Assembly: GCA_964583975.1 (NCBI GenBank)
Contig: CAZOXU010000010.1
Coordinates: forward strand, 9,779-73,778
Origin: an uncultured Planctomycetales bacterium
GTDB lineage: Bacteria; Omnitrophota; Gorgyraeia; Zapsychrales; Fredricksoniimonadaceae
DNA length: 64,000 nt
Direction: 5' to 3'
Positions 8,407 through 59,455 of the stretch are shown piece by piece. The notes beneath the pieces are model-generated. The model saw only the letters and a list, made by a program, of their open reading frames with translations. It was not told where the DNA came from and searched no databases. Position numbers and translations under genes: made by a program. The first letter of the stretch is position 1; each line of letters starts with the position of its first letter.

Positions 8407-8427
8407 TATAGATTAAAAGGCCTATAG

Positions 8428-16741: not shown

Positions 16742-16763
16742 ATTATTTAATCTTTCTTGTACA

Positions 16764-28964: not shown

Positions 28965-29010
28965 CCAGTTTTCCGCAGGCAGTGAAGCGGGGGGCTGGAT
29001 TTTTTTATTG
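28965..29010 (+). terminator. terminator/attenuator-like hairpin plus T-run in the amtB leader
   Basis: CCAGTTTTCCGC-(10 nt loop)-GCGGGGGGCTGG (12 bp with G-U pairs) followed by ATTTTTTTATTGG, 28 nt before the amtB ATG. A second hairpin+T-run (CCTCTTG ... CAAGAGG ATTTTTTATTTT) lies at 28878-28924. Confidence 0.5.
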
Positions 29011-29038
29011 GAAAACAACAATAAACAGGAGGAAGTCG

Positions 29039-30286: not shown

Positions 30287-30289
30287 TTA

Positions 30290-30325
30290 ATCGTACGGGC
30301 GGGGGGGTGCCCCGCCCGATAATAA
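30290..30325. repeat. REP-like family B variant after the amtB stop
   Basis: GTACGGGCGGGGG-ggtg-CCCCGCCCG, with a GTAC head and a GC-rich palindrome. Confidence 0.6.
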
Positions 30326-30340
30326 TTTAGGAGGTTTTCA

Positions 30341-30682
30341 ATGAAATTAGTGCTAGCAATCATACAGCCTCATAGACTCGAAGAAGTCAAAAAGGAGCTC
30401 TATGCCGCCGACGTTAACTTGATCACCGTTTCTGAGGTCTTAGGACATGGTCGTCAGGTGGGTGTTGATGAGTATTACCGTGGAGTGAAAGAAACCGGAA
30501 ACCTGTTGCGTAAGATTCAGGTTGAAATCGCAGTCAACGAAGATTATGTTGAACCAACTGTTAAAGCAATTATTAAGGGTGCTAGAACAGGTAAAATAGG
30601 CGATGGAAAGATTTTCGTCTTAGATTTGCCTCGCTGTATCCGCATCCGTACGGGCGAAGAAGGTTCCAAGGCGATTGGGTAG
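30341..30682 (+). CDS. glnK: nitrogen regulatory protein P-II (GlnK-type, linked to amtB)
   Basis: 113 aa P-II fold sequence with a T-loop tyrosine region (DEYYRG). AGGAGG SD. Immediately downstream of amtB. Confidence 0.88.
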   Translation: MKLVLAIIQPHRLEEVKKELYAADVNLITVSEVLGHGRQVGVDEYYRGVKETGNLLRKIQVEIAVNEDYVEPTVKAIIKGARTGKIGDGKIFVLDLPRCIRIRTGEEGSKAIG

Positions 30683-30723
30683 GGGCTGGGTAACCCAGCC
30701 CGTACACACACATGTGCACGGGC
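30683..30723. repeat. REP-like element, family B, after the glnK stop
   Basis: GGGCTGGGT-A-ACCCAGCCC, then GTACACACACATGTGCAC, then GGGC. Confidence 0.75.
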
Positions 30724-30731
30724 AAAACATC

Positions 30732-30760
30732 TTGACATGATTAGGGTTGTATATTAATAT
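30732..30760 (+). promoter_or_regulatory. sigma70-like promoter upstream of glnA type III (TTGACA-17-TAATAT)
   Basis: TTGACA at 30732-30737 and TAATAT at 30755-30760. The leader contains a hairpin AGGTTCTTC...GGAGAACCT (30786-30819) followed by TGCTTTTTAGA. Confidence 0.5.
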
Positions 30761-30883
30761 TCGACTCTATTCAATATAAACAGTGAGGTTCTTCTTCGAT
30801 TCATTCGCAAGGAGAACCTTGCTTTTTAGACACTAAATTTGAGTTAAAGCTAACGATAACATAATCAAAAAGGGGGAATCATC

Positions 30884-33028
30884 ATGGGGCAAGGACGTCA
30901 CGAAGTTTTAGAAGCATGTGCCGAAGAAGGCAGCTGCTGTAACGGCTCTTTTTCTCAGCACCTTCCTGATCATTTCGGGGACAATGTATTTAATTTGAAG
31001 GTCATGAAGCAAGTTTTGTCATCCAAAGCTTATGCTTCGATCGAAAAGACGATTAAAGAAGGTGGCCGCTTAGATCCAACAATTGCTGATGAAGTAGCTG
31101 ATGCTATGAAGAACTGGGCGATTTCTAAGGGAGCGACCCACTTTACACATTGGTTCCAACCAATGACCGGTACCACCGCTGAAAAGCATGATTCTTTCAT
31201 CAGCTGGAACGATGAAGGTGGCATTATCTTAAGCTTTGGTGGTAAAGAACTTATTCAAGGCGAGCCAGATGCTTCATCTTTCCCTTCTGGTGGTTTACGT
31301 GCAACTTTCGAAGCTCGTGGTTATACGGGTTGGGATCCAACTTCTCCTGCCTTTATTAAAGAAGGTCCCAATTGCGCCACTCTTTGTATTCCTACATTCT
31401 ATATCGGTTATCATGGTGAAGCGTTAGATAAAAAGACACCTTTATTGCGCTCCATGAATGCCTTATCTAAACAAATCTGTCGTCTGGCTGTGCTTTTTGG
31501 TATTGATACCAAAGGCAAACGTGCCTATTGCACTTTAGGACCAGAACAAGAATATTTCTTGATCGACAAAGCTCATTTCCAAGCTCGTTTGGATTTAGTC
31601 CAAACCGGCCGCACTTTGTTTGGCCGTAAACCAGCTAAACATCAACAACAAGAAGATCATTATTTTGGAGCTATCAAGCCCAGAATTATGGCTTTCATGG
31701 AAGATTTGGACCGCACCTTATGGGGCTTAGGAATGCCTTCTAAGACTCGTCACAATGAGGTTGCTCCTGCTCAATATGAAATCGCTCCTATCTATGAAGA
31801 TTTAAACACTGCTGTTGACCACAACATGATGGCCATGGAAATCATGCGTCAATTAGCGGATAAACACGGTTTGGCATGTTTGTTACATGAAAAGCCTTTT
31901 GCTGGCGTTAACGGATCAGGAAAACACAACAACTGGTCTGTGGTTGGTCCAGATGGTAAGAACTGGCTTTATCCTGGAAAAACACCCCATGAAAACGCCA
32001 AATTCTTAACCACCTTGTGTGCCATCATCAAGGCCGTTGACACCTATGCTGATTTGCTTCGTGTCACCGTTGCTTCTGCCGGAAATGATCATCGTTTAGG
32101 GGCTAATGAAGCACCGCCCGCGATCATTTCTATTTTCTTAGGCGAACAACTTTATGATATCGTCGAGCAAATTGAAAAAGGTGGCGCTAAGAGTTCAAAA
32201 CAAGGAAGCGCGATCCACGTTGGGGTTGATTCATTGCCATCGTTGGCTAAAGACACTACGGATCGTAATCGCACCTCACCATTTGCTTTCACTGGTGCAA
32301 AGTTTGAATTCCGTGCGCTTGGTTCTAATATGAATCCTTCATCTGCGAACATGGTGCTTAACACCATCGTAGCTGAAGCGATCAGTGATATCTGCGATCA
32401 ATTAGAAGCAGAGAAGAAATCCGGAAAAGATTTCAACAGCTCATTACAAAAAGTTTTACAAAACATCATTAAGAACCACAAGCGCGTCTTGTTTAATGGT
32501 GATAACTATACTTCTCAATGGCATGCTGAAGCCAAAAAGAGAGGTCTTCCTAACTTGAAAAATACTCCTGATGCTTTGGAAGCGATCAAAGCTAAGAAGA
32601 ATGTTCAAGTCTTAGTGAAGCACGGCATCTTAAGCGAGAAAGAAGTTGCTTCTCGTTATGAAATCAATGTGCATGCTTACAATACTGTGATTGCTTTGGA
32701 AGGCAGCTGTGCAGCTACCATGGCAAGAACACAATTAATTCCAGCAGCAATCGAATATCAAAAAGAACTAGCTGATGCCATCAAGAGCGTTGGTTCAGTA
32801 GGTAAAACTGCTAACCAAAAGAAGCTTTTGAAGGAGATCTCTGGATTAATTGATCAAGCATTAGCGATCACTGATACTCTAGAAGCTTCCATTGAGAAAC
32901 ATGATTCTGCTAAAACCAGTGCAGCGATGGCTAAATTACGTGAAGCAATCGATGCGCTTGAAGGTTTTGTGCCTGCATCGATCTGGCCCGTTCCTTCTTA
33001 TGCAGAAATGCTCTTAATGAACGCATAA
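30884..33028 (+). CDS. glnN: glutamine synthetase type III (GlnN)
   Basis: 714 aa, the length and N-terminal region typical of type III GS. GGGGAATCAUC-type RBS (AAAGGGGGAA). Confidence 0.88.
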
Positions 33029-33032
33029 AGTA

Positions 33033-33070
33033 AGGGCTGGGTTACCTGCCTGCCGGCAGGCGTAGCCCTT
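33033..33070. repeat. REP-like element, family B-related compound hairpin after the glnN stop
   Basis: AAGGGCTGGGTTA-CCTGCC-tgcc-GGCAGG-CGTAGCCCTT. Contains a GTAG motif on the right arm. Confidence 0.7.
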
Positions 33071-33080
33071 AATAATATAA

Positions 33081-33116
33081 AAAGGGCGGATAAACTTTAT
33101 CCGCCCTTTTTGTTTT
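33081..33116 (+). terminator. rho-independent terminator after glnN
   Basis: Perfect 12 bp stem AAAGGGCGGATA / TATCCGCCCTTT with a 5 nt loop, followed by TTTTGTTTT. Confidence 0.8.
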
Positions 33117-33135
33117 AGTGTATAATCTCGAGAAA

Positions 33136-33879
33136 ATGATTACTATCATCAAACACATTGATATCGAAGGCCCGGGGACCTTGGGAGACTTCTTAGAATA
33201 CCGATCAATCCCTTACCAAATCATTGATTTAGGAGAAGGCGAGCGTCTGCCTGAAGACTTTGCTAACATCGATGCCGTGGTTGTTCTTGGCGGCCCCATG
33301 AATGTCGATGAAGAAGATAAGTATCCATTTTTAAAGCAAGAAGATAGATTTATCAAAGAGATTTTACGACGCGAAATTCCTTTTCTGGGAATTTGTTTAG
33401 GTTCACAGCTCTTAGCTAAAGCAGCAGGGGCCAGAGTAGTTAAATCACCGGTTAAAGAAATTGGTTGGTATACGATTCAATTAACGCCGCAAGGCCAACA
33501 AGATCCTTTGTTTAAAAACTTTAAAGAAGATGAACCGATCTATCACTGGCACGGGGATATGTTTGAAATTCCATTGACAGGTCAGTTATTAGCAACAGCC
33601 CAAGGTTGCCCACACCAAGCCCTCAAGATAGGTGAGAAAGCCTATGGCATACAGTTTCATGTAGAGGTCACCGATAAAAGCATTAAAGACTGGTGCGAGG
33701 AATATTGCCAGAACGACCTGCCCGGTCGGCCTGAACATGCCAAGAGCATGCTGGATGATTATGCGCGTTACCAAAAAGAATTCTTAAGGCAGGCTAATAC
33801 GATTTATGAGAATTTTTTAGGAATTACAAAATTAGGGACAGCGCCCTATTTTTCTAAAGTGGGAACCAACAATAAATAG
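33136..33879 (+). CDS. class I glutamine amidotransferase (GATase1-like)
   Basis: Nucleophile-elbow motif GICLGSQ with downstream conserved His/Glu (YHWHGD, GIQFHVEV). Start trimmed to MITIIKH. Confidence 0.75.
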   Translation: MITIIKHIDIEGPGTLGDFLEYRSIPYQIIDLGEGERLPEDFANIDAVVVLGGPMNVDEEDKYPFLKQEDRFIKEILRREIPFLGICLGSQLLAKAAGARVVKSPVKEIGWYTIQLTPQGQQDPLFKNFKEDEPIYHWHGDMFEIPLTGQLLATAQGCPHQALKIGEKAYGIQFHVEVTDKSIKDWCEEYCQNDLPGRPEHAKSMLDDYARYQKEFLRQANTIYENFLGITKLGTAPYFSKVGTNNK

Positions 33880-33903
33880 GGCGCTGTCCCTAATTTTAAG
33901 ACT

Positions 33904-35514
33904 ATGTTTAAAATTGCCCTAGCCCAAATCAATACAACCGTTGGAGATTTATCCGCTAACAGCGCTCTGATTTTAGATCATGTTACCTGGGCCAAGAAAG
34001 CCAAGGCGCAGGTGGTGGTGTTTCCTGAACTAGCTTTGTGTGGATACCCACCCGAAGACTTACTTCTAAAACCTCATTTTATTGAGAATAATCTTAAAGC
34101 CATTAACGCACTGGCTAAGAAAATCCAAGACATCATTGCTGTGGTTGGATTTGTGGATGCCGACGCTAAAGGGCGCATCTACAATGCAGCAGCTGTCATT
34201 GAAAAAGGAAAGATCAGCAGCATCTACCATAAAAAAGAATTACCTAATTATGGAGTCTTCGATGAGAAGAGGTATTTTACTCCTGGAGAGTCTAGTGCCA
34301 CGGATATTATTAGCATCGAGGGCGTAAAGGTAGGTCTTTCAATCTGTGAAGATATCTGGGTCGATGGTAGTATTTATGCCCGTCAAGCTAAAGCTGGGGC
34401 CAAGGTGCTTATCAATATTTCGTCTTCTCCTTATGAAATAGGTAAATTAAAACGTCGGCAAGATCTTTTAATAGCTCGAGCCAAAGAAACCCGCACCACA
34501 ATTGTTTATTGCAATTTAGTTGGCGGTCAAGACGAGTTGGTGTTTGATGGAGCTAGCATGGTGATTGGTGCACAAGGAAGAATTTTGTCCCAAGCTAATC
34601 AATTTAAGGAAGAGCTGCTTGTTTGTGATTTGTCTGCACCGCCAGCACCAGTGCTTCAGCCGCTCGATGAAACCAAAGAAATTTATGAAGCCCTCGTGTT
34701 AGGCACCAAGGACTACGTTGCTAAAAATGGTTTTTCTAAAGTAGCGTTAGGTTTAAGTGGAGGGATTGATTCAGCCTTGGTGGCTGCTATTGCGGTTGAT
34801 GCCTTAGGAGCAGAGAATGTCACAGCCATTTCGATGCCCTCACGATTTAATACTAAGGCGACCCAGGAAGATGCCAGAATTATTGCCAAAAATCTAGCAA
34901 TTGATTTTAAAGAGATCGCAATTGCTGATGTGCATACGATGTATTTGAAATTGCTGAAGAAATATTTCCGAGATCTACCTTCCAACATCGCGGAAGAAAA
35001 TCTTCAAGCCAGAATCCGCGGCAATATCTTGATGGCTTTTTCCAATAAATTTGGCTGGCTTGTTTTGACAACAGGCAACAAGAGTGAGATGGCGGTTGGC
35101 TATTGCACGCTGTACGGCGATATGTCGGGTGGCTTTGCTCCGTTAAAAGATATTTTTAAAACCAAGGTTTATGAATTGACCCGCTGGAGAAATGCTCAAG
35201 GCAAAGAAGCAATTATCCCTAAAAGTGTTTTATTACGTGCTCCAACCGCGGAACTAAGAGCTAACCAAACAGATGAAGAATCTTTGGGGGCTTATGAAAG
35301 GCTTGACCATGTACTTAAGGCCTATGTTGAGGACCACCAGTCGCAAGAAAATATGGCTGAGGATAAACATCAATTAAATTATGTCCAAAAAACATTAAAT
35401 TTAGTCGATCGCAATGAATATAAGCGTCGTCAGGCTCCCCCAGGAATTAAAATAACCGCGCGTGCTTTTGGCCGTGACTGGCGTCTGCCGATTACCAATA
35501 AATACAAGGAATAA
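33904..35514 (+). CDS. nadE: glutamine-dependent NAD+ synthetase (nitrilase domain + NAD synthase domain)
   Basis: 536 aa with an N-terminal CN-hydrolase domain (VVFPELALCGYPPEDL) and a C-terminal NadE domain (SGGIDSALVAA P-loop). Confidence 0.9.
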   Translation: MFKIALAQINTTVGDLSANSALILDHVTWAKKAKAQVVVFPELALCGYPPEDLLLKPHFIENNLKAINALAKKIQDIIAVVGFVDADAKGRIYNAAAVIEKGKISSIYHKKELPNYGVFDEKRYFTPGESSATDIISIEGVKVGLSICEDIWVDGSIYARQAKAGAKVLINISSSPYEIGKLKRRQDLLIARAKETRTTIVYCNLVGGQDELVFDGASMVIGAQGRILSQANQFKEELLVCDLSAPPAPVLQPLDETKEIYEALVLGTKDYVAKNGFSKVALGLSGGIDSALVAAIAVDALGAENVTAISMPSRFNTKATQEDARIIAKNLAIDFKEIAIADVHTMYLKLLKKYFRDLPSNIAEENLQARIRGNILMAFSNKFGWLVLTTGNKSEMAVGYCTLYGDMSGGFAPLKDIFKTKVYELTRWRNAQGKEAIIPKSVLLRAPTAELRANQTDEESLGAYERLDHVLKAYVEDHQSQENMAEDKHQLNYVQKTLNLVDRNEYKRRQAPPGIKITARAFGRDWRLPITNKYKE

Positions 35515-35519
35515 CGTAA

Positions 35520-36218
35520 GTGCTTGTCTCGATTCTTATCCCTGTCTACAACGAAGAACGAACAGTGGCTCAACTAATTGAAAAAGTCCGAGCTGTGAAA
35601 CTGGCTCCAGCATTGACCAAAGAAATAGTGATTGTGAACGATGGATCTACGGACAAAACTCGAGAAATTCTATCCCAATATGAAGGGCAAGAAGGTATTA
35701 AGATTTTTCATCAAGCCAATGGAGGAAAGACCGCAGGACTATTAACTGCCATCAAGCATGCTACAGGCGATGTATATATAGTTCAGGATGCTGATTTGGA
35801 ATATGATCCGGTTGAATATCCAACACTTCTTGACCCTATTGTTAAAGGGCAGACACATGTGGTCTATGGCTCACGTTTTTTGGGAAGTATTGAGCGAATG
35901 AAGTCCATTAATCGCTGGGCTAATGTCATTTCTAATTGGACTGTGAGTTGTTTATATGGGACAAAGATTACGGATATTAACACCTGTTATAAAGTTTTTA
36001 CCCGCCAAGCCTTTGAAGGCATTACGATCCATGGGACACATTTTGCCCTAGATACAGAATTGACTGTCAAACTCCTTCGTAAGGGGCTGTCGATCAAAGA
36101 AGTCTCTATTGGTTATGTGGCTCGGTCTCGAGCCGAAGGAAAGAAAATGCGATGGGCCACTGCTTTAAAAATGTACTGGGCCATTATCAAATATCGCTTC
36201 GTGTCTCCATCAAAATAA
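35520..36218 (+). CDS. family 2 glycosyltransferase (polyprenol-phosphate sugar synthase-like)
   Basis: 232 aa with GT2 DxD architecture (ILIPVYNE, VNDGSTDKT, QDADLEYDP). GTG start. Confidence 0.8.
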   Translation: MLVSILIPVYNEERTVAQLIEKVRAVKLAPALTKEIVIVNDGSTDKTREILSQYEGQEGIKIFHQANGGKTAGLLTAIKHATGDVYIVQDADLEYDPVEYPTLLDPIVKGQTHVVYGSRFLGSIERMKSINRWANVISNWTVSCLYGTKITDINTCYKVFTRQAFEGITIHGTHFALDTELTVKLLRKGLSIKEVSIGYVARSRAEGKKMRWATALKMYWAIIKYRFVSPSK

Positions 36219-36219
36219 A

Positions 36220-37629
36220 ATGAAGAACATCTGGATAAAAATAGCCTTTGTCGTAGGTTTCCTATGGTGGGTGTATTTATTTTTCACGACCCAGATCGTA
36301 GTTGTTTTTGATTCCGAAGGCTATGAGCAATTAGGCCGGATGATTTATACCCAGGGCTGGAGCGAGTATTTCCGCACTGGTCCAAATCGAGAACCCTTTT
36401 TTCCTGCCTTGATTGCCTTATCTATGTATTTGGGAGACATAGCGAAGGTTTCTTATTTTTATCCTTTGAAAATCATTGGGATCCTATTTTTATTCCTGAC
36501 CCTGATTTTCTCTTATCGCCTGATGAGGATGTTATCTATCCGTACATCGATCATCGTTTTAACAATTTTGTATCTGGCGTTCTCACCTGTTATGACCAAC
36601 TCATCCATGCGCTTATGGTCGGAGTTTGCAGCTTATCCGTGGGTTGTTTTGACAGTTTTATTAACGATTAAGGCTTGGGGAGCAGTCAAAGATCCTAGCA
36701 CCAAGAATTCTCAGATGGCAGGCTATGGTTTAGCAGTTGGGGGAATGTTTTTACTTGTGATGTCGGTCAAGGCTGTCGCTGAACCGATGATAATCTGTTA
36801 TCTATGGCCATTTTATTGGCAAATCATAGCTGCCTGGCGAGGCAGGAATTTCCATCAAGCTAAACGAATATTCGTATTTTGCGTGGTTGCCTTAGGGTTA
36901 TTTGAAGGAGCGGTAATTGGATATAAATGGTTGAACTATCAAGGTAATGGTTTGTATTCTTTTACCAATCGCGCCGATTACGCCCTGTATGGCTATACGG
37001 CCCGACGCACCGAGCCACTCACACTCAATCGCTTGGGGGCTGCCATCGTTCAAACACCAGGAATGGGAGGCTGTGCTGAAGTATTCAAAGAAGACGATTG
37101 TATGTTTTGGACTGCCCGCCACTCAGATGATATTCTTGAAGCCAAGAAGGTCGAATTGCATGATAAGGGAATTACAGGTCAGCAAGCATCGAATTATTAT
37201 ATGGCGACCAGCCTTAAGTTGTTTCTGTCTAATCCCCTTCAAGTGATAGGACTTATGCTGATTGAAGCACAAAAGGCTGTGTTTTGGGAATCCTCGATCG
37301 GCTTTGTAGCTTATCCGGACTGGCTCGAGAGGATTTTCTACGATCCGAAATTTTCAGGTGCCTTGCGTATCATTTTAGCTGTATTGTCCTGGCTCGCTTG
37401 TTTAGTAGCCTTATTACATTTGATGCTTTGCAAGAAAAGCCTCAAGGCCAAAGAAGCTGAAAGACCCACCCTATTTTGGATCGCAAATTTCGTTTTTTGG
37501 TTTACCGCCATGTACGCTCTTTATTTTGTCGAATACCGTTACATTTTTCCCATCGTTGCTTTATTCATGGTTCTGATCGCCTTTATGTTTAATAAATTTC
37601 TTAATAAGGTAGGGAAGCTCGGTGCTTAA
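36220..37629 (+). CDS. polytopic membrane glycosyltransferase, GT-C fold (ArnT/PMT-like)
   Basis: 469 aa with many TM helices and a large periplasmic loop. Coupled 2 nt after the GT2 gene. Confidence 0.55.
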   Translation: MKNIWIKIAFVVGFLWWVYLFFTTQIVVVFDSEGYEQLGRMIYTQGWSEYFRTGPNREPFFPALIALSMYLGDIAKVSYFYPLKIIGILFLFLTLIFSYRLMRMLSIRTSIIVLTILYLAFSPVMTNSSMRLWSEFAAYPWVVLTVLLTIKAWGAVKDPSTKNSQMAGYGLAVGGMFLLVMSVKAVAEPMIICYLWPFYWQIIAAWRGRNFHQAKRIFVFCVVALGLFEGAVIGYKWLNYQGNGLYSFTNRADYALYGYTARRTEPLTLNRLGAAIVQTPGMGGCAEVFKEDDCMFWTARHSDDILEAKKVELHDKGITGQQASNYYMATSLKLFLSNPLQVIGLMLIEAQKAVFWESSIGFVAYPDWLERIFYDPKFSGALRIILAVLSWLACLVALLHLMLCKKSLKAKEAERPTLFWIANFVFWFTAMYALYFVEYRYIFPIVALFMVLIAFMFNKFLNKVGKLGA

Positions 37630-38359
37630 GAAGAATATCTTTACGATTGTTGTTATAGTCTTGCTAGGCTCTCAATTATTGTGGTTGGCCGTGGCACCGT
37701 CTTCGTTTAAGGTTAGTTGGAGCAAGAATCCTTTGATCGCCCAAATCATTCGCGAACATGCTCTAGTTAATGAAAAAAGTAAGGCCATGACAATCAGCTA
37801 TTATTTCCCACACTTTGCTTATTTTGCGGATATTGTCTTAGGAGTGCAAAAGCCAGAGAGTGAACTGATGGATGGCTATCATGATGGTAAGCCGTATATA
37901 TTTCGCATGTACTACCAAAAGGCTGCCACGCTGTTTCCTAATAACGATGATGCCCAGGCTTTGCTGGCTTTTACTCAGTACTACCAAAAGGATATTCCTC
38001 AAGCTATAGAAAGCTATCAGCGTTCCTTAGATCGCAATCCCTACTTCTTTTGGGGCTATTACAATTTGGGGGTCATTTATTTTCAACAAAAGGATTATTC
38101 AAAAAGTGCTCAGATGCTCAGCAAGGCCGTATCCTTAAATCCAGAGATTACCTTAAGAATTCTTTATCAATCAGCTTTATACAGACAGATATGGAAATCC
38201 TTACCTAATCCTCAGGCGACTTTGCAGGTTAATTTAGAGCAAGGCCGTCAAGATGCAGGGAGGCTTCTGGCAGTGTGTTTCTTAAGAATCAAGACAGGTA
38301 ATATAGATAATTCTTTAGAAGAACAGGTGGCAAAGCAGGTGGTTGTGAGGCTTTTTTAA
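37622..38359 (+). CDS. TPR-repeat protein with an N-terminal membrane anchor
   Basis: 245 aa with one N-terminal TM and TPR-like repeats (AQALLAFTQYYQKDIPQAIESYQRSLDRNPYF...). Overlaps the upstream gene by 8 nt. Confidence 0.6.
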   Translation: MLKKNIFTIVVIVLLGSQLLWLAVAPSSFKVSWSKNPLIAQIIREHALVNEKSKAMTISYYFPHFAYFADIVLGVQKPESELMDGYHDGKPYIFRMYYQKAATLFPNNDDAQALLAFTQYYQKDIPQAIESYQRSLDRNPYFFWGYYNLGVIYFQQKDYSKSAQMLSKAVSLNPEITLRILYQSALYRQIWKSLPNPQATLQVNLEQGRQDAGRLLAVCFLRIKTGNIDNSLEEQVAKQVVVRLF

Positions 38360-38488
38360 TTTCCAACAGATGGTGAAGTTTTAATTGCATTGCAAGACTA
38401 AAAACGCTAAAATATCCGCTTTACAAATGCATAAAAGCGATTCAAAAAACATCGATCCTTATTAAATTGAAGGGGTTTAGTCTCTAAA

Positions 38489-44466: not shown

Positions 44467-44481
44467 AATAAGGAGAGGTTT

Positions 44482-45027: not shown

Positions 45028-45054
45028 GATAGTTACAATTAGATAAAAAATCTA

Positions 45055-45087
45055 GCCCTGTACCGTTTGGTACAGGGTTTTTATTTT
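45055..45087 (+). terminator. rho-independent terminator
   Basis: AGCCCTGTACC-gttt-GGTACAGGGT followed by TTTTTATTTT. Confidence 0.75.
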
Positions 45088-45129
45088 AACTTATCTTTTT
45101 ATTCCCCCTAGTTTTGTTATAATGCTTGT

Positions 45130-47608: not shown

Positions 47609-47621
47609 ATAACAAAATCTG

Positions 47622-49133: not shown

Positions 49134-50073
49134 TTCTGTCATCCTCAAAACACTTAAAACCGCCCTTAGTCGAAGAGAACCTTTAAGAAAAATAACCAAT
49201 GCTATCCGTTTGGTCAATGGTCGAGGTGATGGTTTAGAGGGTTTAATTTTAGAACAATACGATAAACATTTTTTGGCGCAGGTCTTAGATCGACGCTGGG
49301 TTGCACAAGCAGAAGCTTTGAAAAGTTTTCTAGTAGAGAGTTTTCCAGTCGAATATTTTATTCTCAAAGACCGAACGCAAAGCACAGCTTCTCAAGCCGA
49401 TGGCTTTAAATCTCATGTTCTTTTAGGATCATCAAGCCAAGCCGTTATTAGTGAAAATGGTTTAAACTTTGCTGTTGATTTAAATGATGGTCTAAATACC
49501 GGCTTATTTTTAGACATGCGTGCTAATCGCAAGCTAGTAGGTCAGCACTGTAAGGCCAAGCGTGTGTTGAATTGTTTTGCTTACACATGTTCATTTGGCG
49601 TGTATGCCAAAGCCGCAGGCGCCAGCAGCACGGTCAATGTGGATATTAGCAAAAAGGTTTTAAATCGAGGTCTGCAGAATTACCAACTTAATAGCTTCCA
49701 AGAGGACAAGGGAGATTTTATGAAGGCTGATGCTGTTCAATACCTGCAGGTGGCTGTTAAAAAAGACAACCGTTTTGATGTGATCGTCATCGATCCTCCT
49801 TCTTTTGCTCGTGTGGAAGGCAAGGTTTTCAATGTGGCCAAGGCTTTGCCTGTTTTAATAAGTCACGCCCTGCATATTTTAAATGAAGGCGGTCGATTGT
49901 TTATATCGACGAATTTCAGTGGTCTTTCTTATCTGCAACTAGAACAAATGCTTAAGGATTTAAAGACCATTAGAGCTTATAAGAAGATTTCACGTTGTGG
50001 GCAAGATCAAGATTTTGTAGGCAGCGGCTCGAGCAAAGAAAGCTATCTGGCTGCCTTGTGGGTTGAATATTAG
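49123..50073 (+). CDS. class I SAM-dependent RNA methyltransferase (RlmI/RlmK-like)
   Basis: SAM-binding fold (VLNCFAYTCSFGV ... IVIDPPSF). Start trimmed to MPLDSV. Overlaps the glpD stop. Confidence 0.7.
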   Translation: MPLDSVILKTLKTALSRREPLRKITNAIRLVNGRGDGLEGLILEQYDKHFLAQVLDRRWVAQAEALKSFLVESFPVEYFILKDRTQSTASQADGFKSHVLLGSSSQAVISENGLNFAVDLNDGLNTGLFLDMRANRKLVGQHCKAKRVLNCFAYTCSFGVYAKAAGASSTVNVDISKKVLNRGLQNYQLNSFQEDKGDFMKADAVQYLQVAVKKDNRFDVIVIDPPSFARVEGKVFNVAKALPVLISHALHILNEGGRLFISTNFSGLSYLQLEQMLKDLKTIRAYKKISRCGQDQDFVGSGSSKESYLAALWVEY

Positions 50074-50124
50074 AGGGGATTACACTATAATGCCTCAAAT
50101 CTTAAACGAGAAAAAGGAGAATGT

Positions 50125-50505
50125 ATGACTAAGAAAATCATTAAAACTGACAAAGCAGCTTTGCCTGTAGGTCCGTACAATCAGGCTGTTGTTATAGGAA
50201 ATCTTATCTACACGGCTGGACAAATTCCTTTAGACCCACAAGGCAATATGGTGGCTGGTGGGGTTAAAGAACAAACCGAACAGGTGATTGCTAACTTAAA
50301 AGCAGTGCTTGAGCATGCAGGATCCTCGCTAGACAAGATTGTCAAGGCTACTGTATTTATGAAAGATCTTAATGATTTTGCTGGAATGAACGAAGTTTAT
50401 GGCAAGTATTTTAAGAACGAAACAGCCCCTGCTCGTTCAACCTTGCAAGTCGCCCGAATTCCTAAGGATTCCTTGGTTGAAATTGAAGTCGTTGCCTATA
50501 TCTAA
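50125..50505 (+). CDS. ridA: RidA/YjgF family reactive-intermediate deaminase
   Basis: 126 aa with YjgF signature regions (PVGPYNQAV, PARSTLQVARIP). AAAGGAG RBS. Confidence 0.88.
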   Translation: MTKKIIKTDKAALPVGPYNQAVVIGNLIYTAGQIPLDPQGNMVAGGVKEQTEQVIANLKAVLEHAGSSLDKIVKATVFMKDLNDFAGMNEVYGKYFKNETAPARSTLQVARIPKDSLVEIEVVAYI

Positions 50506-50516
50506 AAAGGAGTCAC

Positions 50517-51083
50517 ATGAGAATTTTTGTTCTTTGTATTATTGTTTTTGTTGTTTTAATTCAAGGTTTTTCCAAAGTGAGAGCAGAAAATATGCCACAA
50601 ACCAACAGTATCTATGATTTTGCCGTTAAAACCATTGATGATAAAGACAAATGGTTAGCAGATTATAAGGGTAAGGTTCTTTTGATTGTTAACACGGCCT
50701 CTCGCTGTGGATTTACGCCACAGTACAAAGGTCTTGAGGCCGTTTATAGGGAGTATAAGGACAAGGGTTTTGAAGTTTTGGCCTTTCCTTCCAATGATTT
50801 TATGGGCCAAGAGCCAGGGAATAATACAGAGATCAAAAATTTCTGTGAACTCAAATTCCATACGACCTTTCCGTTATTTTCAAAGATTAAAGTGAAAGGT
50901 TCCGAGGCTGCCCCGCTGTATCAATATCTGACAAACTTAAAGGAGTTTAAAGGGGATATTAGCTGGAATTTTAATAAGTTTTTGGTCGATCAAAAAGGCC
51001 AGGTGGTGGCTCGTTATGGTTCTAATGTCGACCCGCAGTCGCAAGAAATTCTTAGCAAAATCAAGTCGCTCTTAGCTCCTTAA
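50517..51083 (+). CDS. gpx: glutathione peroxidase family protein (Cys-type), secreted
   Basis: Signal peptide, then GPx motifs (NTASRCGFT, LAFPSNDFMGQEPG, WNFNKFLV). Confidence 0.85.
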   Translation: MRIFVLCIIVFVVLIQGFSKVRAENMPQTNSIYDFAVKTIDDKDKWLADYKGKVLLIVNTASRCGFTPQYKGLEAVYREYKDKGFEVLAFPSNDFMGQEPGNNTEIKNFCELKFHTTFPLFSKIKVKGSEAAPLYQYLTNLKEFKGDISWNFNKFLVDQKGQVVARYGSNVDPQSQEILSKIKSLLAP

Positions 51084-51088
51084 GGCTC

Positions 51089-51293
51089 ATGTTAAAATGG
51101 CCAACCAGCTTATGTAGCCGTAGACGGGACTATTTATGATTTAACCGAAAGCCGGCTTTGGCGTGGAGGCTTTCATGATCCTTCTGAAGGCCGTGCCCGT
51201 GCAGGAAAAGATTTAAGTAAGCTGATAAAGAAATCACCGCATGGGAAGAAAAATTTAGCCAGATTTCCCATAGTAGGTCGGCTATCTGATTAA
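51089..51293 (+). pseudogene. possible frameshifted cytochrome b5-like heme/steroid-binding small protein
   Basis: The frame 51096-51293 encodes NGQPAYVAVDGTIYDLTESRLWRGGFHDPSEGRARAGKDLSKLIKKSPHGKKNLARFPIVGRLSD, which resembles the cytochrome b5-like domain but has no in-frame start. The ATG at 51089 is in the +1 frame. Removing one A from the AAAA run at 51094-51097 would give MLNGQPAYV... as a continuous 67 aa ORF. Confidence 0.35.
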
Positions 51294-51395
51294 CAGACTT
51301 GTTTTCTTCTCGATGAGCAGCTATACTTACAGTATAATCAGCTAGACCCCATTGAAGCACGAGTAGGTAGAAAAACGAACTCTTTAAAAGAAAGA

Positions 51396-51779
51396 ATGCT
51401 TATGGCGCAAGCCAAAACAGTCCTTTTTATTGATGATAATCCAGTCGATAGAACGCTAATCGAGCGTCTTTTGTTGAAACACGAATTCAATGTTCTATTG
51501 GCCTCTAATGCCAAAGATGGACTTGATCTTGCCCAAGAACATATCCCAGACTTGATTCTTTTAGATATCCTTTTACCAGGGATTAGCGGGATCGAAGTTA
51601 GCAAAAAGCTTAAAAACAAACAAGAAACCTGTACGATCCCCATTATTTTCTACACCAGTATTGATACCCCCAAACACCTAATCGACTATGAATCATATGG
51701 TGCGGTGGATTATATTCAAAAGACCGACCCCCCTGAAGTTTTAATTAAGCATATTGAATACGCTTTAGGCATACAGTAG
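51396..51779 (+). CDS. single-domain response regulator (CheY-like receiver)
   Basis: 127 aa REC domain with a phospho-acceptor Asp context (LILLDILLPG) and conserved T/K positions. Confidence 0.8.
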   Translation: MLMAQAKTVLFIDDNPVDRTLIERLLLKHEFNVLLASNAKDGLDLAQEHIPDLILLDILLPGISGIEVSKKLKNKQETCTIPIIFYTSIDTPKHLIDYESYGAVDYIQKTDPPEVLIKHIEYALGIQ

Positions 51780-51807
51780 CGACGGGAAATAGTCTTAAGC
51801 ATTTCGC

Positions 51808-51836
51808 TTGACAACCCCATAGGCTTCGATTATATT
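51808..51836 (+). promoter_or_regulatory. sigma70 consensus-like promoter upstream of carA (TTGACA-17-TATATT)
   Basis: TTGACA at 51808-51813 and TATATT at 51831-51836. The leader contains the hairpin TTTAAGG-gcgac-CCTTAAA. Confidence 0.55.
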
Positions 51837-51908
51837 GTACCAGGCTTTAAGGGCGACCTTAAATCCCACCAAAGCATTTTTCCACGACATTTTTAAGCAT
51901 TAGGATTC

Positions 51909-53000
51909 ATGAAAGAGGCCATACTATATCTGCAGGACGGCACTACTTTCCGGGGCCGAACACTTCAAACTACCGGAGAAACACACGGTGAAGCTGTCTT
52001 TAATACAGCTTTAACCGGTTATCAAGAAGTTCTCACCGATCCATCTTATAGCGGCCAAATTGTAGTCATGACCTATCCTTTAATTGGTAACTATGGCATT
52101 AATGACCAAGACAACGAATCAGATGCGGTACATGTCAAAGGCTTTGTAGTCAAAGAATTCTGCCGCCGACCATCCAACTGGCGCTCGAAAAAAAGCATCA
52201 TCGAATATCTGAATGAACATAATATCCTGGCGATTGAAGGGGTTGATACACGCGCCCTGACCCGCCATTTAAGGCTTTCGGGAGCCATGAAAGCCATTAT
52301 TTCCACCGAAGATTTTGATCCTAAAGTCCTTAAGGCTAAGCTAGATGCCACACCTTCCATGGAAGGGGCTGATTTAGTTAAAGATGTCACCACCTCGAAA
52401 AAGTATGTATGGAAAGCCAAGGGCCTTAGACGTTATAAGGTGGCTGCCATTGATTGCGGTATTAAGTGGAATATTTTGCGTATCTTGGCGGATTTAGGCT
52501 GTGAAACTCATGTTTTTCCTGCCACGGTTACTTTTAAAGAAATCATGAAAATGAAGCCTGATGGTCTGTTTTTATCCAATGGCCCAGGTGATCCAGCTGT
52601 TGTTACATATGTTGTAGATACCGTCAAAGAATCTTTAGGTAAAATTCCTACCTTTGGGATTTGTTTAGGTAATCAGATTTTGGGCTTGGCGTTAGGTGGT
52701 CAGACTTATAAATTAAAATTTGGCCATCACGGAGCCAATCATCCAGTTAAAGACTTTGAAGGCAATCACATCAGCATTACCTCCCAAAACCATGGGTTTT
52801 GTGTCAATATCGATAGCCTTAACCAAGATGAAATCGAAGTTATTCATACCAATTTGAATGATCACAGTGTCGAAGGTATCCGACATAAGAAATATCCAGC
52901 GTTTTCGATCCAGTATCACCCCGAAGCAGCGCCTGGTCCACGCGATGCCAAATATTTATTTGAACAGTTTATTGCCATGATGGAGAAGAGTAAAACCTAA
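51909..53000 (+). CDS. carA: carbamoyl-phosphate synthase small subunit
   Basis: 363 aa with a GATase1 catalytic Cys (GICLGNQ) and a CPSase small-chain N-domain. Confidence 0.93.
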
Positions 53001-56000
53001 TGCCTAAACGTATTGATATAAAGAAGATTTTGATTATTGGAGCAGGACCTATTGTCATCGGTCAGGCGTGTGAATTCGACTATTCAGGCTCACAGGCTTG
53101 TAAGGCCTTGAAGGAAGAGGGCTATGAAGTCATCTTGGTCAATTCTAATCCAGCTACCATCATGACTGACCCAGGCATTGCCGATGGCACCTACGTTGAA
53201 CCTTTAACCCCTGAATTTTTAGAGAAAATTATTCAAAAAGAACGACCTGATGCTATTTTGCCAACCTTAGGTGGTCAGACCGGTTTAAATTTGGCGATGA
53301 AGCTTTATGAAATGGGAATTTTAAAGAAATATGGCGTGGAAATGTTGGGGGCTAAATATGAAGTCATTAAAAAAGCTGAAGACCGTTCAGAGTTTAAAGA
53401 AGCCGCCATCAAGGTTGGCTTAGATCTGCCTAAAAGCGTATTTGCCTATAATCTTGAGGAAGCTAAAAAAGGCGCTGAGGAAATAGGATTTCCTTGCATC
53501 GTGCGTGCTTCGTTTACTTTAGGCGGTACTGGTGGCGGTATTGCCCGTAATATGGAAGATTTTGAACGCATTGCCTCGCTTGGAATCGAAAGCAGCATGA
53601 TCCACGAAATCTTGATTGAAGAATCGATCGAAGGATGGAAAGAATACGAGCTAGAATTGATGCGAGACAGGGCTGATAACGTGGTGATTGTTTGTTCAAT
53701 TGAAAATTTAGATCCAATGGGAGTGCATACGGGAGATAGTATTACAGTGGCTCCTGCTCAGACTTTAACGGATGTTGAATATCAAAACATGCGCGACTGT
53801 TCGATTCGCTTGATTCGTGAAATTGGTGTTGAGACTGGTGGAAGTAATATCCAATTTGCTGTTGATCCTAAAAATGGACGCATGGTAGTTATTGAAATGA
53901 ATCCGCGCGTATCACGTTCCTCGGCGTTGGCTTCTAAAGCTACAGGTTTTCCTATTGCCAAATTTGCAGCGAAATTAGCCGTGGGATACAGCCTCGATGA
54001 AATCCAAAATGATATTACCAAGGAAACCCCAGCCTGCTTCGAGCCAACCATTGATTATGTTGTCACCAAAATCCCACGTTTTACTTTTGAGAAATTCCCT
54101 GAAGCCAAGGATATTCTAGGCGTGCAGATGAAATCCGTGGGTGAAACCATGGCGATCGGCCGTACCTTCAAGGAATCGTTACAAAAGGGTTTGAGAGGTC
54201 TGGAGATTGATCATATCGGCTTGGATAATAAACAAGATGCGCGTTATATCGAGGATGAAAAGATACGCTTGCGTTTAAGTGAACCCAATGCTTCTCGAAT
54301 ATTTTATATCAAGTATGCCTTACAAAAAGGCTATTCAATTGATGATGTGGCTGACATTTCAAAGATTGACGTTTGGTTTATTGATCAAATCTCCCAGATT
54401 TTAGAGTTGGAGGAAGAATTAAAAGCTGTTGTAGCATCTACAGGGACATTAAGCCCTTCGTTATTAAGAAAAGCAAAAGAATATGGATTCTCGGATGCCC
54501 AGCTCGCGGAGATCTTGGATAAAAGCGAAAACGATGTGCGCCAATGGCGTAAAGAACAAGGCATTGTAGCAACTTTTAAAGTGGTTGATACCTGTGCTGC
54601 AGAGTTTGAAGCCTACACACCATATTATTATTCAACCTATGAAACTGAAGATGAAGCCATCATCAATAATAAGAATCGTCGTTCTAAAAAGAAGAAAATT
54701 ATGATCTTAGGTGGTGGCCCAAATCGCATTGGTCAGGGAATTGAATTTGATTACTGCTGCTGCCATGCTTCATTTGCTTTGAAGGAGATGGGCTTTGAAA
54801 CGATCATGGTCAACTCTAACCCTGAGACAGTGTCGACCGACTATGACACTTCAGATCGTTTGTACTTTGAACCTTTGACCTTTGAAGATGTGATGAATAT
54901 TTATGATGTGGAACAACCTGATGGTGTGATTGTGCAGTTTGGCGGTCAGACACCTTTGAATCTGGCTCGACGCCTCAACCAAGCAGGGGTTCCGATCATT
55001 GGGACGTCGGTTGATTCAATTGATGTGGCTGAGAATCGCGAACATTTCTCCAAACTGATTAATGAATTGGGGATTGATCAGCCAGCTAATTCTTCAACAA
55101 CTTCCAAAGATGAAACATTGACTCAAGCTGCCAAAATTGGTTATCCGGTGCTGGTGCGACCTTCGTATGTTCTAGGTGGCCGGGCCATGCGTATTGTTTA
55201 CGATGAAGAATCTTTAAAGTCATTCTTGGATGAAGTCCACAGCGTGTCTCGAGGGCATCCAGTACTGATTGATAAATTCTTGGAAGATGCCCAGGAAGTT
55301 GATGTGGATGCGATCTGTGATGGCGAGGATGTATATATTGGTGGAGTCATGGAACATATTGAGAATGCGGGAATCCATTCCGGCGATTCAGCTTGCGTAT
55401 TGCCACCATATACGTTGCGTGAAGAGATTGTGGAAGAAATCAAGAAGCATACGGTTCGTTTAGCCAAGGCCTTAAAAGTCATTGGGCTTTTAAATATCCA
55501 ATTTGCTGTCAAAGGCTCCAAGGTCTATGTTTTAGAAGTTAATCCGCGCGCTTCACGTACATCACCATTTGTTTCTAAAGCCACAGGCATTTCTTTACCT
55601 AAGATTGCAGCTCAGATCATGGCCGGTAAAAAATTAAAGAATTTTCAACTTCCTAATGCGGATGACCTTAAGTATTTTTGTGTCAAAGAATCTGTGTTAC
55701 CGTTTAGCCGTTTCTCAGGGGTGGACATCATTTTAGGCCCTGAAATGAAATCAACCGGGGAAGTCATGGGAATTGCCAATACATTTGGGGCTGCGTTTGC
55801 TAAATCGCAAATGGCTGCCAACCAAGCCCTTCCTAAACACGGAACAGCTTTCATCAGCGTGAACGATTCGGATAAACGCCATGTGACCATGGTGGCCCAA
55901 AAATTAGCTGAATTGGATTTTAAAATTCTAGCCACCAAGGGAACAGCCAAGGTGTTGCGAGAAAACGGTATTGAGGTAGCGGTCGTAGATAAACATCATG

Positions 56001-56305
56001 AAGGTCAGAATAATGCCTTGACGCTTATTAAGAAAAATGAGATAAATCTAATTATCAATACGCCATCTGGAAAGAAAAGCCAGTCAGATATGCGGTCAAT
56101 AAGGGCAGCGTCGATTTTGCACAATATTCCTTGTATTACAACCTTGCAAGGAGCTTGGGCAGCAGTTTACGGAATCGAAGCCTCGTTGAAAGAAGAATTC
56201 ACCGTTGAGTCGTTGCAAAATTTATATCAATCTAATTCTGCTGTTCCTGCCCTGCCTCGCCGGGAGGCGGGCGACAAACAGGGGCGGGATAGCCTGAAAG
56301 TTTAA
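53000..56305 (+). CDS. carB: carbamoyl-phosphate synthase large subunit
   Basis: 1101 aa with duplicated ATP-grasp halves and an MGS-like C-terminus. Highly conserved N-terminus ([33 protein letters not shown]). Confidence 0.95.
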
Positions 56306-56307
56306 TT

Positions 56308-57684
56308 ATGTGTGGAATCGTTGGAGTCAGCCATCATAAGCAAGCCAGTCGGATCGCGTTTCTAGGCCTGTATGCGCTTCAGCATAGAGGAGAAGAAGCA
56401 GCTGGGATTGTTTCCTACGATGGCAAAGACACCCACGTACTTAAAAGAATTGGTTTGGCAACTGACCAATTTGATGAAGAAAATATCAGCAAACTTACCG
56501 GTCATATGGCAATCGCCCACACCCGTTACTCTACGACAGGTGGTTCACATTTAAAAAACGTACAACCGATCTTAGTTACTCATCGCAAAAAACCTATAGC
56601 CGTAGCACATAATGGTAATCTAACAAATACGGAAGAACTTTGTCATAGACTGGAAGAAGAAGGTTCTATTTTTCAGACTTCGATGGATTCAGAGGTTTTT
56701 GTTCATCTTCTTGCTAAAAGTCCTAATGGCGATTTAAAACGCTGGCTAGTTGATGTCTTTAGTCAGGTTAAAGGAGCCTTTTCCGTTGTTCTCTTGGTTG
56801 AAGATCATTTAATTGGAGTCAGAGATCCGCAAGGTTTTAGACCTTTATGTTTAGGCCAATTGGGGGACAGTTATATTCTGGCTTCTGAAAGCTGCGCATT
56901 TGATTTGATGAAAGCTGAATTTGTACGCGAGATCGAACCTGGTGAAATAGTGATGATTAAGGGTAATAAATTAGAATCCACATTTTTACCAGATGCCAAA
57001 AAGACCCGACGAGCCAGCTGCATATTTGAGAATGTTTATTTTGCAAGACCAGATAGCCATATTTTTGATGATAATGTTTACCAAGTCAGGAAACGTTTAG
57101 GACAGCAATTAGCCAAGGAACATCCAGCCCAAGCCGATTTTGTGATGGGGATCCCCGACTCAGGTAATTATGCAGCGATTGGTTATGCGCAAGAATTGAA
57201 ACTACCTTTTGAAATAGGAATGATCCGTAATCACTATATTGGCCGCACCTTCATCCAGCCGAGCCAGTTTATGCGTGAGTTTCGAGTACGCGTTAAGCTA
57301 AATCCTATTCGAGATTTGATTAAGGGCAAGAACGTTATTGTGGTAGAAGATTCAATCGTTCGAGGAACAACCTCCAGAAATCGTATCCAAGAAATTCGTA
57401 ATGCCGGGGCAAAATCCATTCACATGCGCATTTCTTGTCCACCGATCAAATGGCCATGTTTTTTTGGCATTGATTTTCCTTCAACCAAAGAACTAATTGC
57501 ACATAATAAAACTGTTAAAGAAATAGCTGATTTTATCGAGGTGGATTCCCTGGAGTATTTGAGTTTAGAAGGAATGACTTCGGTAATGAAAGACAAGGGA
57601 TTCTGTACGGCTTGCTTTACGGGAAATTATCCGATTGACGTCCCTAAGAACACCGATAAATTGAAATTAGAAGGTTGTAGGTAG
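56308..57684 (+). CDS. purF: amidophosphoribosyltransferase
   Basis: 458 aa with an N-terminal MCGIVG nucleophile and a PRTase domain. Possible 4Fe-4S cysteines (CPPIKWPCFFG ... CTAC). Confidence 0.92.
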   Translation: MCGIVGVSHHKQASRIAFLGLYALQHRGEEAAGIVSYDGKDTHVLKRIGLATDQFDEENISKLTGHMAIAHTRYSTTGGSHLKNVQPILVTHRKKPIAVAHNGNLTNTEELCHRLEEEGSIFQTSMDSEVFVHLLAKSPNGDLKRWLVDVFSQVKGAFSVVLLVEDHLIGVRDPQGFRPLCLGQLGDSYILASESCAFDLMKAEFVREIEPGEIVMIKGNKLESTFLPDAKKTRRASCIFENVYFARPDSHIFDDNVYQVRKRLGQQLAKEHPAQADFVMGIPDSGNYAAIGYAQELKLPFEIGMIRNHYIGRTFIQPSQFMREFRVRVKLNPIRDLIKGKNVIVVEDSIVRGTTSRNRIQEIRNAGAKSIHMRISCPPIKWPCFFGIDFPSTKELIAHNKTVKEIADFIEVDSLEYLSLEGMTSVMKDKGFCTACFTGNYPIDVPKNTDKLKLEGCR

Positions 57685-57735
57685 GGGCTGGGTGACCCAG
57701 CCCAATTAAAGGCGAGGAGACCTCGCCCGTACAGG
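57684..57735. repeat. REP-like element, family B, between purF and pyrG
   Basis: GGGGCTGGGTGACCCAGCCC, then aattaaa, then GGCGAGG-aga-CCTCGCC, then CGTACAGG. Confidence 0.75.
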
Positions 57736-59349: not shown

Positions 59350-59361
59350 TTGATGATTTAT

Positions 59362-59443: not shown

Positions 59444-59455
59444 CTGTATAAAAAT

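Follow-up and report, generated by a model that had tools for sequence, protein, structure and literature searches.

REP-like hairpins with GTAG or GTAC feet in an Omnitrophota genome, and RAYT genes beside one of their two families in other genomes

Introduction

In a 64-kb stretch of contig CAZOXU010000010.1 (assembly GCA_964583975.1), which comes from an uncultured bacterium of the Omnitrophota, GC-rich palindromes stand directly past the stop codons of amtB, glnK, glnN, and purF. This placement raises the question of what the palindromes are, i.e., terminators belonging to the genes that they follow or members of a dispersed repeat family that has come to lie there. A first-pass annotation, made from the letters of this stretch alone, had described them as repetitive extragenic palindromic (REP) elements and candidate substrates of REP-associated tyrosine transposases (RAYTs), and had added that they probably also act as mRNA 3' stabilisers or terminators and that they are placed immediately after nitrogen and nucleotide biosynthesis genes. 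We followed up on this over the whole stretch (hereafter the window; 42% GC), to which all element counts below refer. The best explanation that we can offer, and one that we consider probable, is that the palindromes are REP elements of the GTAG-tagged superfamily mobilised in trans by a RAYT.

Recurrent hairpins of a single design

A pattern search that followed a scan of the window for perfect GC-rich hairpins brought the total to 13 hairpin units at 8 sites, or about one unit per 5 kb. The palindromes past the amtB, glnK, glnN, and purF stops are all present as first described, and the catalogue gains four more sites outside the region 30290-57735. GC-rich perfect hairpins with a stem of at least 8 bp number nine, whereas 100 dinucleotide-matched simulations averaged 0.13 and never exceeded 2, and GGGCTGGGTNACCCAGCCC occurs three times with up to 3 mismatches, compared with zero occurrences in 100 shuffles. 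The units share the design GTA[G/C]-GGG[C/T]-NNNN-loop-NNNN'-[G/A]CCC, in which a 4-nt foot stands at the base of a hairpin of 19-23 nt with a perfect stem of 7-9 bp, the whole unit measuring 23-27 nt. The stem base GGG(C/T)...(G/A)CCC, with its three G-C pairs, is found in 12 of the 13 units, the exception being the unit at 57711, which starts GGCG. As single-stranded DNA, the segments that bear single units or dimers fold with -10 to -22 kcal/mol and z-scores between -3.2 and -5.3.

A conserved 8-mer had initially been placed next to the palindromes. The sequence GTACGGGC is indeed overrepresented, with seven occurrences against 0.54 expected and four of the seven at hairpins, but the GGGC/GCCC is the base of the stem itself and not an adjoining motif. 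On the plus strand, all six sites matching [AG]CCC[GC]TAC are hairpin tails. A full-text literature search with the 8-mer GTAGGGGC gave nothing relevant, and Rfam at gathering thresholds, run over the whole window, matched no element, its sole match being a tRNA.

Paired copies, which had also been envisaged from the start, make up four of the sites (8424, 23805, 24018, and 57681). In each of these dimers the feet lie on the outside (HH dimers), the layout being GTAG-hairpin 1, an A-rich spacer of 7-10 nt, and hairpin 2-CTAC. In its loop, hairpin 2 carries the reverse complement of the hairpin 1 loop type (CCCCGT versus ACAGGG; TCT versus AAA or AGA), and each dimer therefore consists of two units in inverted orientation, with each half carrying its own inner stem. 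The minimum-energy fold of the 8424 dimer is one long imperfect hairpin, whereas the other three dimers fold into two separate hairpins.

Two sub-families can be told apart. Family A (sites 8424, 16764, and 23805) follows the formula GTAG-GGGC-N4-CCCYGT-N4'-GCCC, with an 8-bp stem, the 6-nt loop CCCYGT, and GTAG/CTAC feet on all five units (one reading ATAG). Family B (sites 24018, 30679, and 57681) follows the formula GTA[G/C]-GGGY-N4-TNW-N4'-RCCC, with an 8-9-bp stem and the 3-nt loop TNW; its foot is GTAG at 30679 and 57681 and GTAC at 24018, 30293, 30702, and 57729. Two copies are irregular, the one at 30293 being a relative with a 5-nt loop and the one at 33030 being composite and degenerate. 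Over 26 of 26 nt, the family A units at 8460 and 23838 match each other exactly, suggesting that copying was recent. When a covariance model was trained on family A units from other genomes, it recovered all five family A units of the window at E-values of 1e-11 to 5e-8 and reached the family B and irregular units at only 0.003 to 6 (family B, 0.003-0.16; the 33030 copy, 6.4). With filters off, the same model picked up no cryptic further copies in the window. Judging by its sequence, family B is a lineage-restricted derivative of the same design as family A, keeping the foot and the three G-C pairs at the stem base.

Placement of the copies

The copies and their surroundings are collected in Table 1. 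Placement at gene ends holds for the four sites first described, but the 8424 dimer sits between divergent genes, in a 5' region, and those at 23805 and 24018 lie inside coding sequence. Nor do the stop codons always precede the palindromes, as had been proposed: for glnK and purF, the stop codon is the TAG of the GTAG foot itself.

Table 1. Hairpin copies in the window and the features around them (E, E-value of the family A covariance model; z, z-score of the fold)
Feature	Position	Strand	Sequence or structure	Scores	Context
Family A HH dimer	8424-8485	.	(A)TAG-GGGCAATCCCCCGTGGTTGCCC, 10-nt A-rich spacer, GGGCAGGCACAGGGGCCTGCCC-CTAC; G-T mismatch in arm 8428-8449	-22.1 kcal/mol; z -4.1; E 5e-8 and 1e-11	18 nt upstream of histidine phosphatase gene (7891-8406, -); on the other side ORF 8658-10883 (+)
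Single family A unit	16759-16789	-	GTACA-GGGCAGGCACAGAGGCCTGCCC-CTAC; canonical GTAG foot on minus strand	E 2e-9	Between co-oriented Proton_antipo_M genes (15293-16741 and 16794-18272, both minus)
Family A HH dimer	23805-23863	+	Translated VGATPRGRPQEGQAQGPAPT	E 3e-11 and 1e-11	In frame in ORF 23154-27974
Family B HH dimer	24018-24072	+	GTAC-GGGCTGGGTCTCCCAGCCC-TAACGCAAA-GGGTGGGGAAACCCCACCC-CTAC; translated VRAGSPSPNAKGGETPPL(Q), also written VRAGSPSPNAKGGETPPLQ	z -5.3	In frame in ORF 23154-27974
Single unit	30293-30318	+	GTAC foot, 9-bp all-GC stem, 5-nt loop	E 0.16	6 nt past amtB stop, about 10 nt before glnK ribosome-binding site
Family B double-foot unit and palindrome	30679-30727	+	30679-30705, GTAG-GGGCTGGGTAACCCAGCCC-GTAC; adjoining imperfect palindrome to 30727	E 0.003	Foot TAG at 30680-30682 is glnK stop
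Degenerate composite family B-like unit	33030-33070	+	GTAA-GGGCTGGGTTACC[TGCCTGCCGGCAGGCGT]AGCCC with nested palindrome	E 6.4 (weak)	Begins 2 nt past glnN stop
Family B HH dimer	57681-57732	.	GTAG-GGGCTGGGTGACCCAGCCC-AATTAAA-GGCGAGGAGACCTCGCC-CGTAC	z -5.3; E 0.003	Foot TAG at 57682-57684 is purF stop; pyrG starts at 57742
glnN intrinsic terminator (not a family member)	33077-33113	+	Stem around GGGCGGATAAA/TTTATCCGCCC, then T-run		7 nt past the 33030 unit
amtB (Pfam call)	28982-30286
glnK, P-II gene (Pfam call)	30341-30682
glnN, type III glutamine synthetase (Pfam call)	30884-33028
purF (Pfam call)	56308-57684
pyrG (Pfam call)	57742-59349
tRNA (Rfam match)	59362-59443				Overlaps program-called ORF 59360-59737

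Insertion status from close relatives

Relatives of the locus were found by a metagenome scan with GlnN. The closest are L122 (GlnN 83% identical) and L136 (82%), both of which keep the order amtB-glnK-glnN. Neither contains a GC-rich hairpin in the amtB-glnK-glnN region, all three window elements, including the one after glnN, being missing with clean alignment gaps in their place. The 30293 unit is a clean insertion of ~25 nt relative to both L136 and L122, and at 30679 the window has gained ~45 nt precisely at the stop codon of glnK, where the relatives read GGT TAA G and the window reads GGG TAG GGGC. Despite this insertion, the C-terminus of GlnK (KAIG) is unchanged, and the conserved -35 box of glnN (TTGACA) lies downstream at 30732. 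Since L122 and L136 are without the elements, the window copies are insertions, and their absence from the shared region of relatives at this degree of GlnN identity would make the spread in this lineage fairly recent.

The relatives also bear on the supposed link with nitrogen and nucleotide genes. Because they keep the operon without the elements, and because four of the eight sites in the window lie elsewhere (by the histidine phosphatase gene, between the Proton_antipo_M genes, and in a giant-protein gene), we rejected a specific tie to these genes and regard the association as incidental.

No duplication is seen consistently at the insertion junctions; TAAT at 30289/30319 is a possible one, but a single case in AT-rich DNA. 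A miniature inverted-repeat transposable element was rejected as an identity for the hairpins, as there are no long terminal inverted repeats of 15-30 bp (the 4-nt foot being the only one) and no target site duplications. A CRISPR or other tandem array was rejected as well, the copies being dispersed and irregularly spaced.

The leader of glnN (30732-30883) holds features of its own. A sigma-70-like promoter lies at 30732-30760, with its TTGACA also present in L122 and L136. Further on, at 30807-30822, is a hairpin with a T-run, in place of which L136 has another hairpin and a T-rich tract. The leader has no Rfam match. From this arrangement, an attenuator upstream of glnN is possible.

In-frame copies inside a giant-protein gene

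Two dimers lie in ORF 23154-27974, which encodes a protein of 1606 aa with no Pfam match. The protein begins with a hydrophobic segment, possibly a signal peptide. Aligned with 13 homologues, it shows the family A dimer at 23805 in a hypervariable loop and the family B dimer at 24018 as a net insertion of 15 aa between invariant residues that is missing from all 13. Both dimers are true in-frame insertions, since conserved gene sequence continues on either side of each. The 23805 copy is identical to the cross-phylum consensus of family A described below.

The N-terminal ~400 residues of this protein define a very large family found almost only in Omnitrophota metagenome-assembled genomes (MAGs; 2004 matches among 8000 candidates scored), which identifies the host as a member of that phylum. 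The proteins of this family are fused to varied C-terminal domains, among them kinase, PGK, methyltransferase, ankyrin, and glycosyltransferase domains. The C-terminal motif PGGIDLN..NLNLKEQGQ is conserved in most of the 13 homologues in the alignment.

Another Omnitrophota MAG (L238) has related REP dimers in two tandem paralogues of the giant protein (3657-3712 and 10474-10529), at exactly the same codon position as 23805-23863 of the window. Identity between the L238 and window dimers is 76%, compared with 60% in the coding flanks, and between the two L238 paralogues it is 95%, compared with 65%. This excess conservation could come from gene conversion, site-specific re-insertion, or a constraint at the DNA level.

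Four homologues (P0001, P0003, P0004, and P0105) carry the peptide strings FLSGIQ, VIPAKVGIQ, and IPGSPTKTFGDD at their N-termini and in the same hypervariable loop. We take these strings to resemble translations of other repeat families common in MAGs, which would suggest that several unrelated repeat families invade this loop.

Family A in other phyla

A scan of one genome per species with the pattern GGGCAGGC-N6-GCCTGCCCCTAC matched at least 120 stretches. Among the matches listed, family A is present, with hardly a base changed, in MAGs from more than 20 phyla (39-74% GC), including Omnitrophota (L003, L089, L103, and L114), Desulfobacterota, Planctomycetota, Chloroflexota, Nitrospirota, Acidobacteriota, Binatia, Latescibacterota, and many others. 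The six loop bases left unconstrained by the pattern are, among the same matches, nearly always ACRGGG, and the usual upstream partner is GTAGGGGCAACCCCCTGTGGTTGCCC. The foot is present in 213 of the 223 units of the listed loci, as GTAG on the 5' side in 106 and as CTAC on the 3' side in 107.

When units were chosen by foot and loop only, 71 of 86 had perfectly complementary inner arms, and these were of six stem types. Three pairs show double changes, with a covariation score of 0.310 compared with 0.134 for shuffles, and none of 500 shuffles scored as high. This compensatory variation in the stem indicates that the hairpin, and not the sequence, is what selection has conserved. Tandem partial copies of the REP were seen in L016, L019, L035, and L092.

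RAYT genes next to family A

To find RAYT genes, we used the E. coli RayT as a seed in phmmer, which gave 2 weak matches, and then a local hidden Markov model (HMM) built from 113 RAYT subclass 2.4 cores. Y1_Tnp genes (PF01797, above the curated cut-off) are present in 6 of the 120 listed 8-kb REP-bearing loci, where ~0.2 would be expected for a single-copy gene. The Y1_Tnp gene of L057 is flanked on both sides by family A elements, and in L202 a REP dimer lies 30 nt downstream of the Y1_Tnp gene; RAYT genes accompany the same REPs in L020, L035, L077, L083, and L110 as well. The local HMM found no RAYT in the four Omnitrophota loci L003, L089, L103, and L114.

In L057 and L083, the RAYT gene carries a dimer in frame directly past the HUH motif. 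A database search for RAYT homologues, in which 7994 of 8000 scored candidates matched at E <=0.001, extends this observation: most of the 113 best parsed homologues have the same REP dimer in frame just past the HUH motif, and the rest have a short loop of 10-16 residues there. The translated REPs read VGAGPRACP, VGATPRGCP, or VGAAPCGRP, then GQPQGVAPT, GQAQGPAPT, or GHPQGGAPT. These homologues carry the motifs NH[IFV]H, WQ, and YIxNNP which, together with the three G-C pairs of the stem base, the double-foot forms, and the REPs within the gene, give a match with the published RAYT subclass 2.4 (PMC6006769). On this sequence evidence, family A is made up of the REPs of that subclass, and in other genomes the association with a RAYT is shown. 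The idea that the hairpins are candidate RAYT substrates is accordingly upheld for family A, through the flanked gene of L057 and the REP-followed gene of L202, but for family B a RAYT link was found in none of the loci searched.

Some RAYT homologues (P0124, P0128, P0155, P0161, and P0211) have the REP loop past the HUH motif expanded into tandem peptide repeats of up to 97 residues, for instance GQSGIGQPQI xN and PRGCPGSSTP xN. The in-gene REP region of these genes appears prone to slippage. In L203 (1-5546), and also in L204 and L205, a RAYT 2.4 gene is part of a type I restriction-modification operon, hsdM-hsdS-Fic/RhuM-RAYT-hsdR; the gene ends overlap or abut, and the called hsdM and hsdR genes contain family A REPs as well. 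A search of IMG/VR retrieved exact family A units on 32 contig stretches classified as viral (L206-L237), none of which has a RAYT gene by the local HMM. Such contigs could be a vehicle for the spread across phyla, or they may be misclassified host DNA.

Discussion

The arrangement seen in the window, in which repeated hairpins stand on a GTAG or GTAC foot, is, as the first-pass annotation recognised, the one described for substrates of RAYT/TnpA_REP (PMC3733652, PMC6006769). Di Nocera et al. (2013, PMC3733652) describe the GTAG-tagged superfamily as palindromes of 20-40 bp that carry the GTAG tag unpaired at one end, have stems of 6-9 bp, and form sub-families with compensatory stem changes. 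Loops of 2-3 nt are common, dimers with the tags outside predominate, most copies lie close to the 3' ends of ORFs, and in-frame intragenic dimers encode 20-30 aa. The units described here share the palindrome, tag, stem, dimer, location, and in-frame features, together with the compensatory stem changes; the 24 families published there were compared with families A and B by description only.

The relevant part of Quentin et al. (2018, PMC6006769) describes subclass 2.4, which is Bertels group 4, by the same three protein motifs as above, by REP stems with three G-C pairs at the bottom, by double-foot forms, by REPs in frame within the tnpA_REP gene between HUH and Y, and by a patchy distribution over many phyla. 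In family A, too, a 5' GT[AG]G foot directly adjoins the hairpin and three G-C pairs form the bottom of the stem, and the RAYTs next to this family carry NH[FIV]H, WQ, and YIxNN[PS]. The differences are that Omnitrophota is not among the groups named for the subclass in that part of the paper and that the window has the 3-nt loops and GTAC feet of family B and no RAYT within its 64 kb. The portions of the literature on these REPs that we consulted contain no description of a GTAG-tagged family in Omnitrophota.

Other systems are less close. The REPINs of Pseudomonas (Bertels and Rainey 2011, PMC3116915) are likewise inverted REP pairs with a short spacer that are regarded as the replicating unit and are linked to a RAYT. 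However, the halves of the window dimers usually have different inner stems, and each half folds alone as readily as the dimer folds into one hairpin; furthermore, family A is near-identical across phyla, whereas the REPIN-RAYT system is described, in the part of the literature used here, as vertically inherited. The REP elements and bacterial interspersed mosaic elements of E. coli, with their TnpA_REP (RayT, b0228), share the GTAG foot 5' of an imperfect hairpin and the HUH/Y1 enzyme, and E. coli RayT weakly detects the RAYTs of L057 and L083. In contrast, their stem sequence is unrelated, the window units lack the bulged long stem, and the E. coli RAYT belongs to subclass 2.2 and not 2.4. 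Rickettsia palindromic elements (RPEs; cited in PMC3733652) also lie in frame within functional genes, but RPE-1 is described as longer, and the REP-like RPE-4 and RPE-6 belong to a CGTC-tagged group and not to the GTAG group (PMC3733652).

Under the explanation that we prefer, the hairpins would be short, non-autonomous DNA elements that spread within the genome as single units or as REPIN-like inverted dimers with their heads outside. A RAYT (TnpA_REP), a single-domain HUH/Y1 nuclease of the IS200 superfamily, would act in trans, binding the hairpin in single-stranded DNA and reading the 5' GTAG foot. Copies would persist where they do little harm, whether in spacers near gene ends or, provided that they are read in the frame GTA-GGG-GCN, in protein surface loops; read as G-TAG, the foot would itself provide a stop codon.

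Several observations weigh against this explanation and should be considered together. Neither the E. coli RayT phmmer search nor the local HMM found a RAYT/Y1_Tnp gene in the 64-kb window. The RAYT gene of L083 has REPs inside the gene only, with none in the ~100 nt read on each side. The 23805 dimer replaces ~16 native loop residues and is not a simple addition. The family B pattern was not found in the 205 other loci searched or in IMG/VR, its 3-nt loop was seen in one of 223 units elsewhere, and the GTAC foot is not among the degenerate GTAG forms listed in the part of PMC3733652 used here. The RAYT link of family B therefore comes from resemblance to family A, namely in foot, stem base, dimer layout, and reading frame. 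In this genome, RAYT mobilisation is our inference, as are the use of such an enzyme by family B and any effects at the RNA level, and no transposition event was seen directly.

The lack of a RAYT gene in the window also accords with an account in which the REPs are fossils, spread by an ancestral RAYT or by horizontal transfer, with the enzyme since lost and the copies kept by host use (as 3' RNA stabilisers or protein-binding sites) or by slow decay. REPtrons are reported lost in many strains in the section of PMC3733652 drawn on here. Degenerate or composite copies are present at 33030-33070 and 30706-30727, one arm of the 8424 dimer has a mismatch, and most intergenic copies lie within a few nucleotides of a stop codon. 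Against this, the family A copies are perfect, with two of them identical over 26 nt and matching the consensus found across phyla, and the lack of copies in the shared region of relatives so close in GlnN points to a fairly recent spread. We consider it unlikely that the window copies are such fossils, and mobilisation by a RAYT remains the reading that we favour.

A second alternative concerns family B, which could be an independent, lineage-specific palindrome family that is no RAYT substrate, was moved otherwise or made locally, and resembles family A at its ends. Its restriction to the window among everything searched speaks for this, as do a loop length atypical for RAYT 2.4 REPs, the marginal covariance model scores, and the GTAC foot, which is self-palindromic and is not a described GTAG variant. 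Nevertheless, the two families share the position of the foot, the GGGC/GCCC base, 8-bp stems, and HH dimers with A-rich spacers of 7-9 nt, and both are read in the frame GTA-NGG-GCN in the same gene. GTAG and GTAC feet are also mixed within single family B dimers, and loops of 2-3 nt are, as noted above, common in published GTAG families. An independent origin of family B seems to us improbable, and we continue to treat both families as REPs of one superfamily.

Stable GC-rich hairpins directly past the amtB, glnK, glnN, and purF stops would also suit transcription terminators or attenuators evolved in place, a role that we find highly improbable and reject as an identity, given that none of the units has a T-run or was called by a terminator scan, that two dimers lie inside an intact ORF, that one further copy separates the amtB stop from the glnK ribosome-binding site and another stands between closely spaced, co-oriented Proton_antipo_M genes, that the same family A sequence stands in unrelated contexts across the phyla listed, and that glnN has its own canonical terminator, so that the neighbouring REP-like unit is not one.

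With the hairpins taken as RAYT-mobilised REPs, we would offer one further proposal, although we think it doubtful. The in-gene dimers may be actively renewed in place, through RAYT-mediated exchange of REP for REP or through site-specific re-insertion at resident GTAG feet, and the position and conservation shared with the L238 dimers would fit this. They would also suit a RAYT 2.4/REP system that spreads horizontally, in contrast to the vertical inheritance described for REPINs. In that case, family B might serve as substrate for a RAYT with a specificity not yet described, one that recognises the GTAC foot.

The kind of element described here and its main properties are already published, and an Omnitrophota genome now joins the hosts of GTAG-tagged REPs. 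In this compact genome, REPs insert a few bases from gene ends and provide the stop codons of glnK and purF, and they add peptides of 15-20 residues to a giant protein of secreted type. Two warnings for annotation follow: peptide strings in MAGs such as VGATPRGRP...GQAQGPAPT are translated REPs, and these hairpins should not be labelled terminators. Among the matches listed, family A is nearly identical in more than 20 phyla, and this bears on how RAYT 2.4 systems spread.

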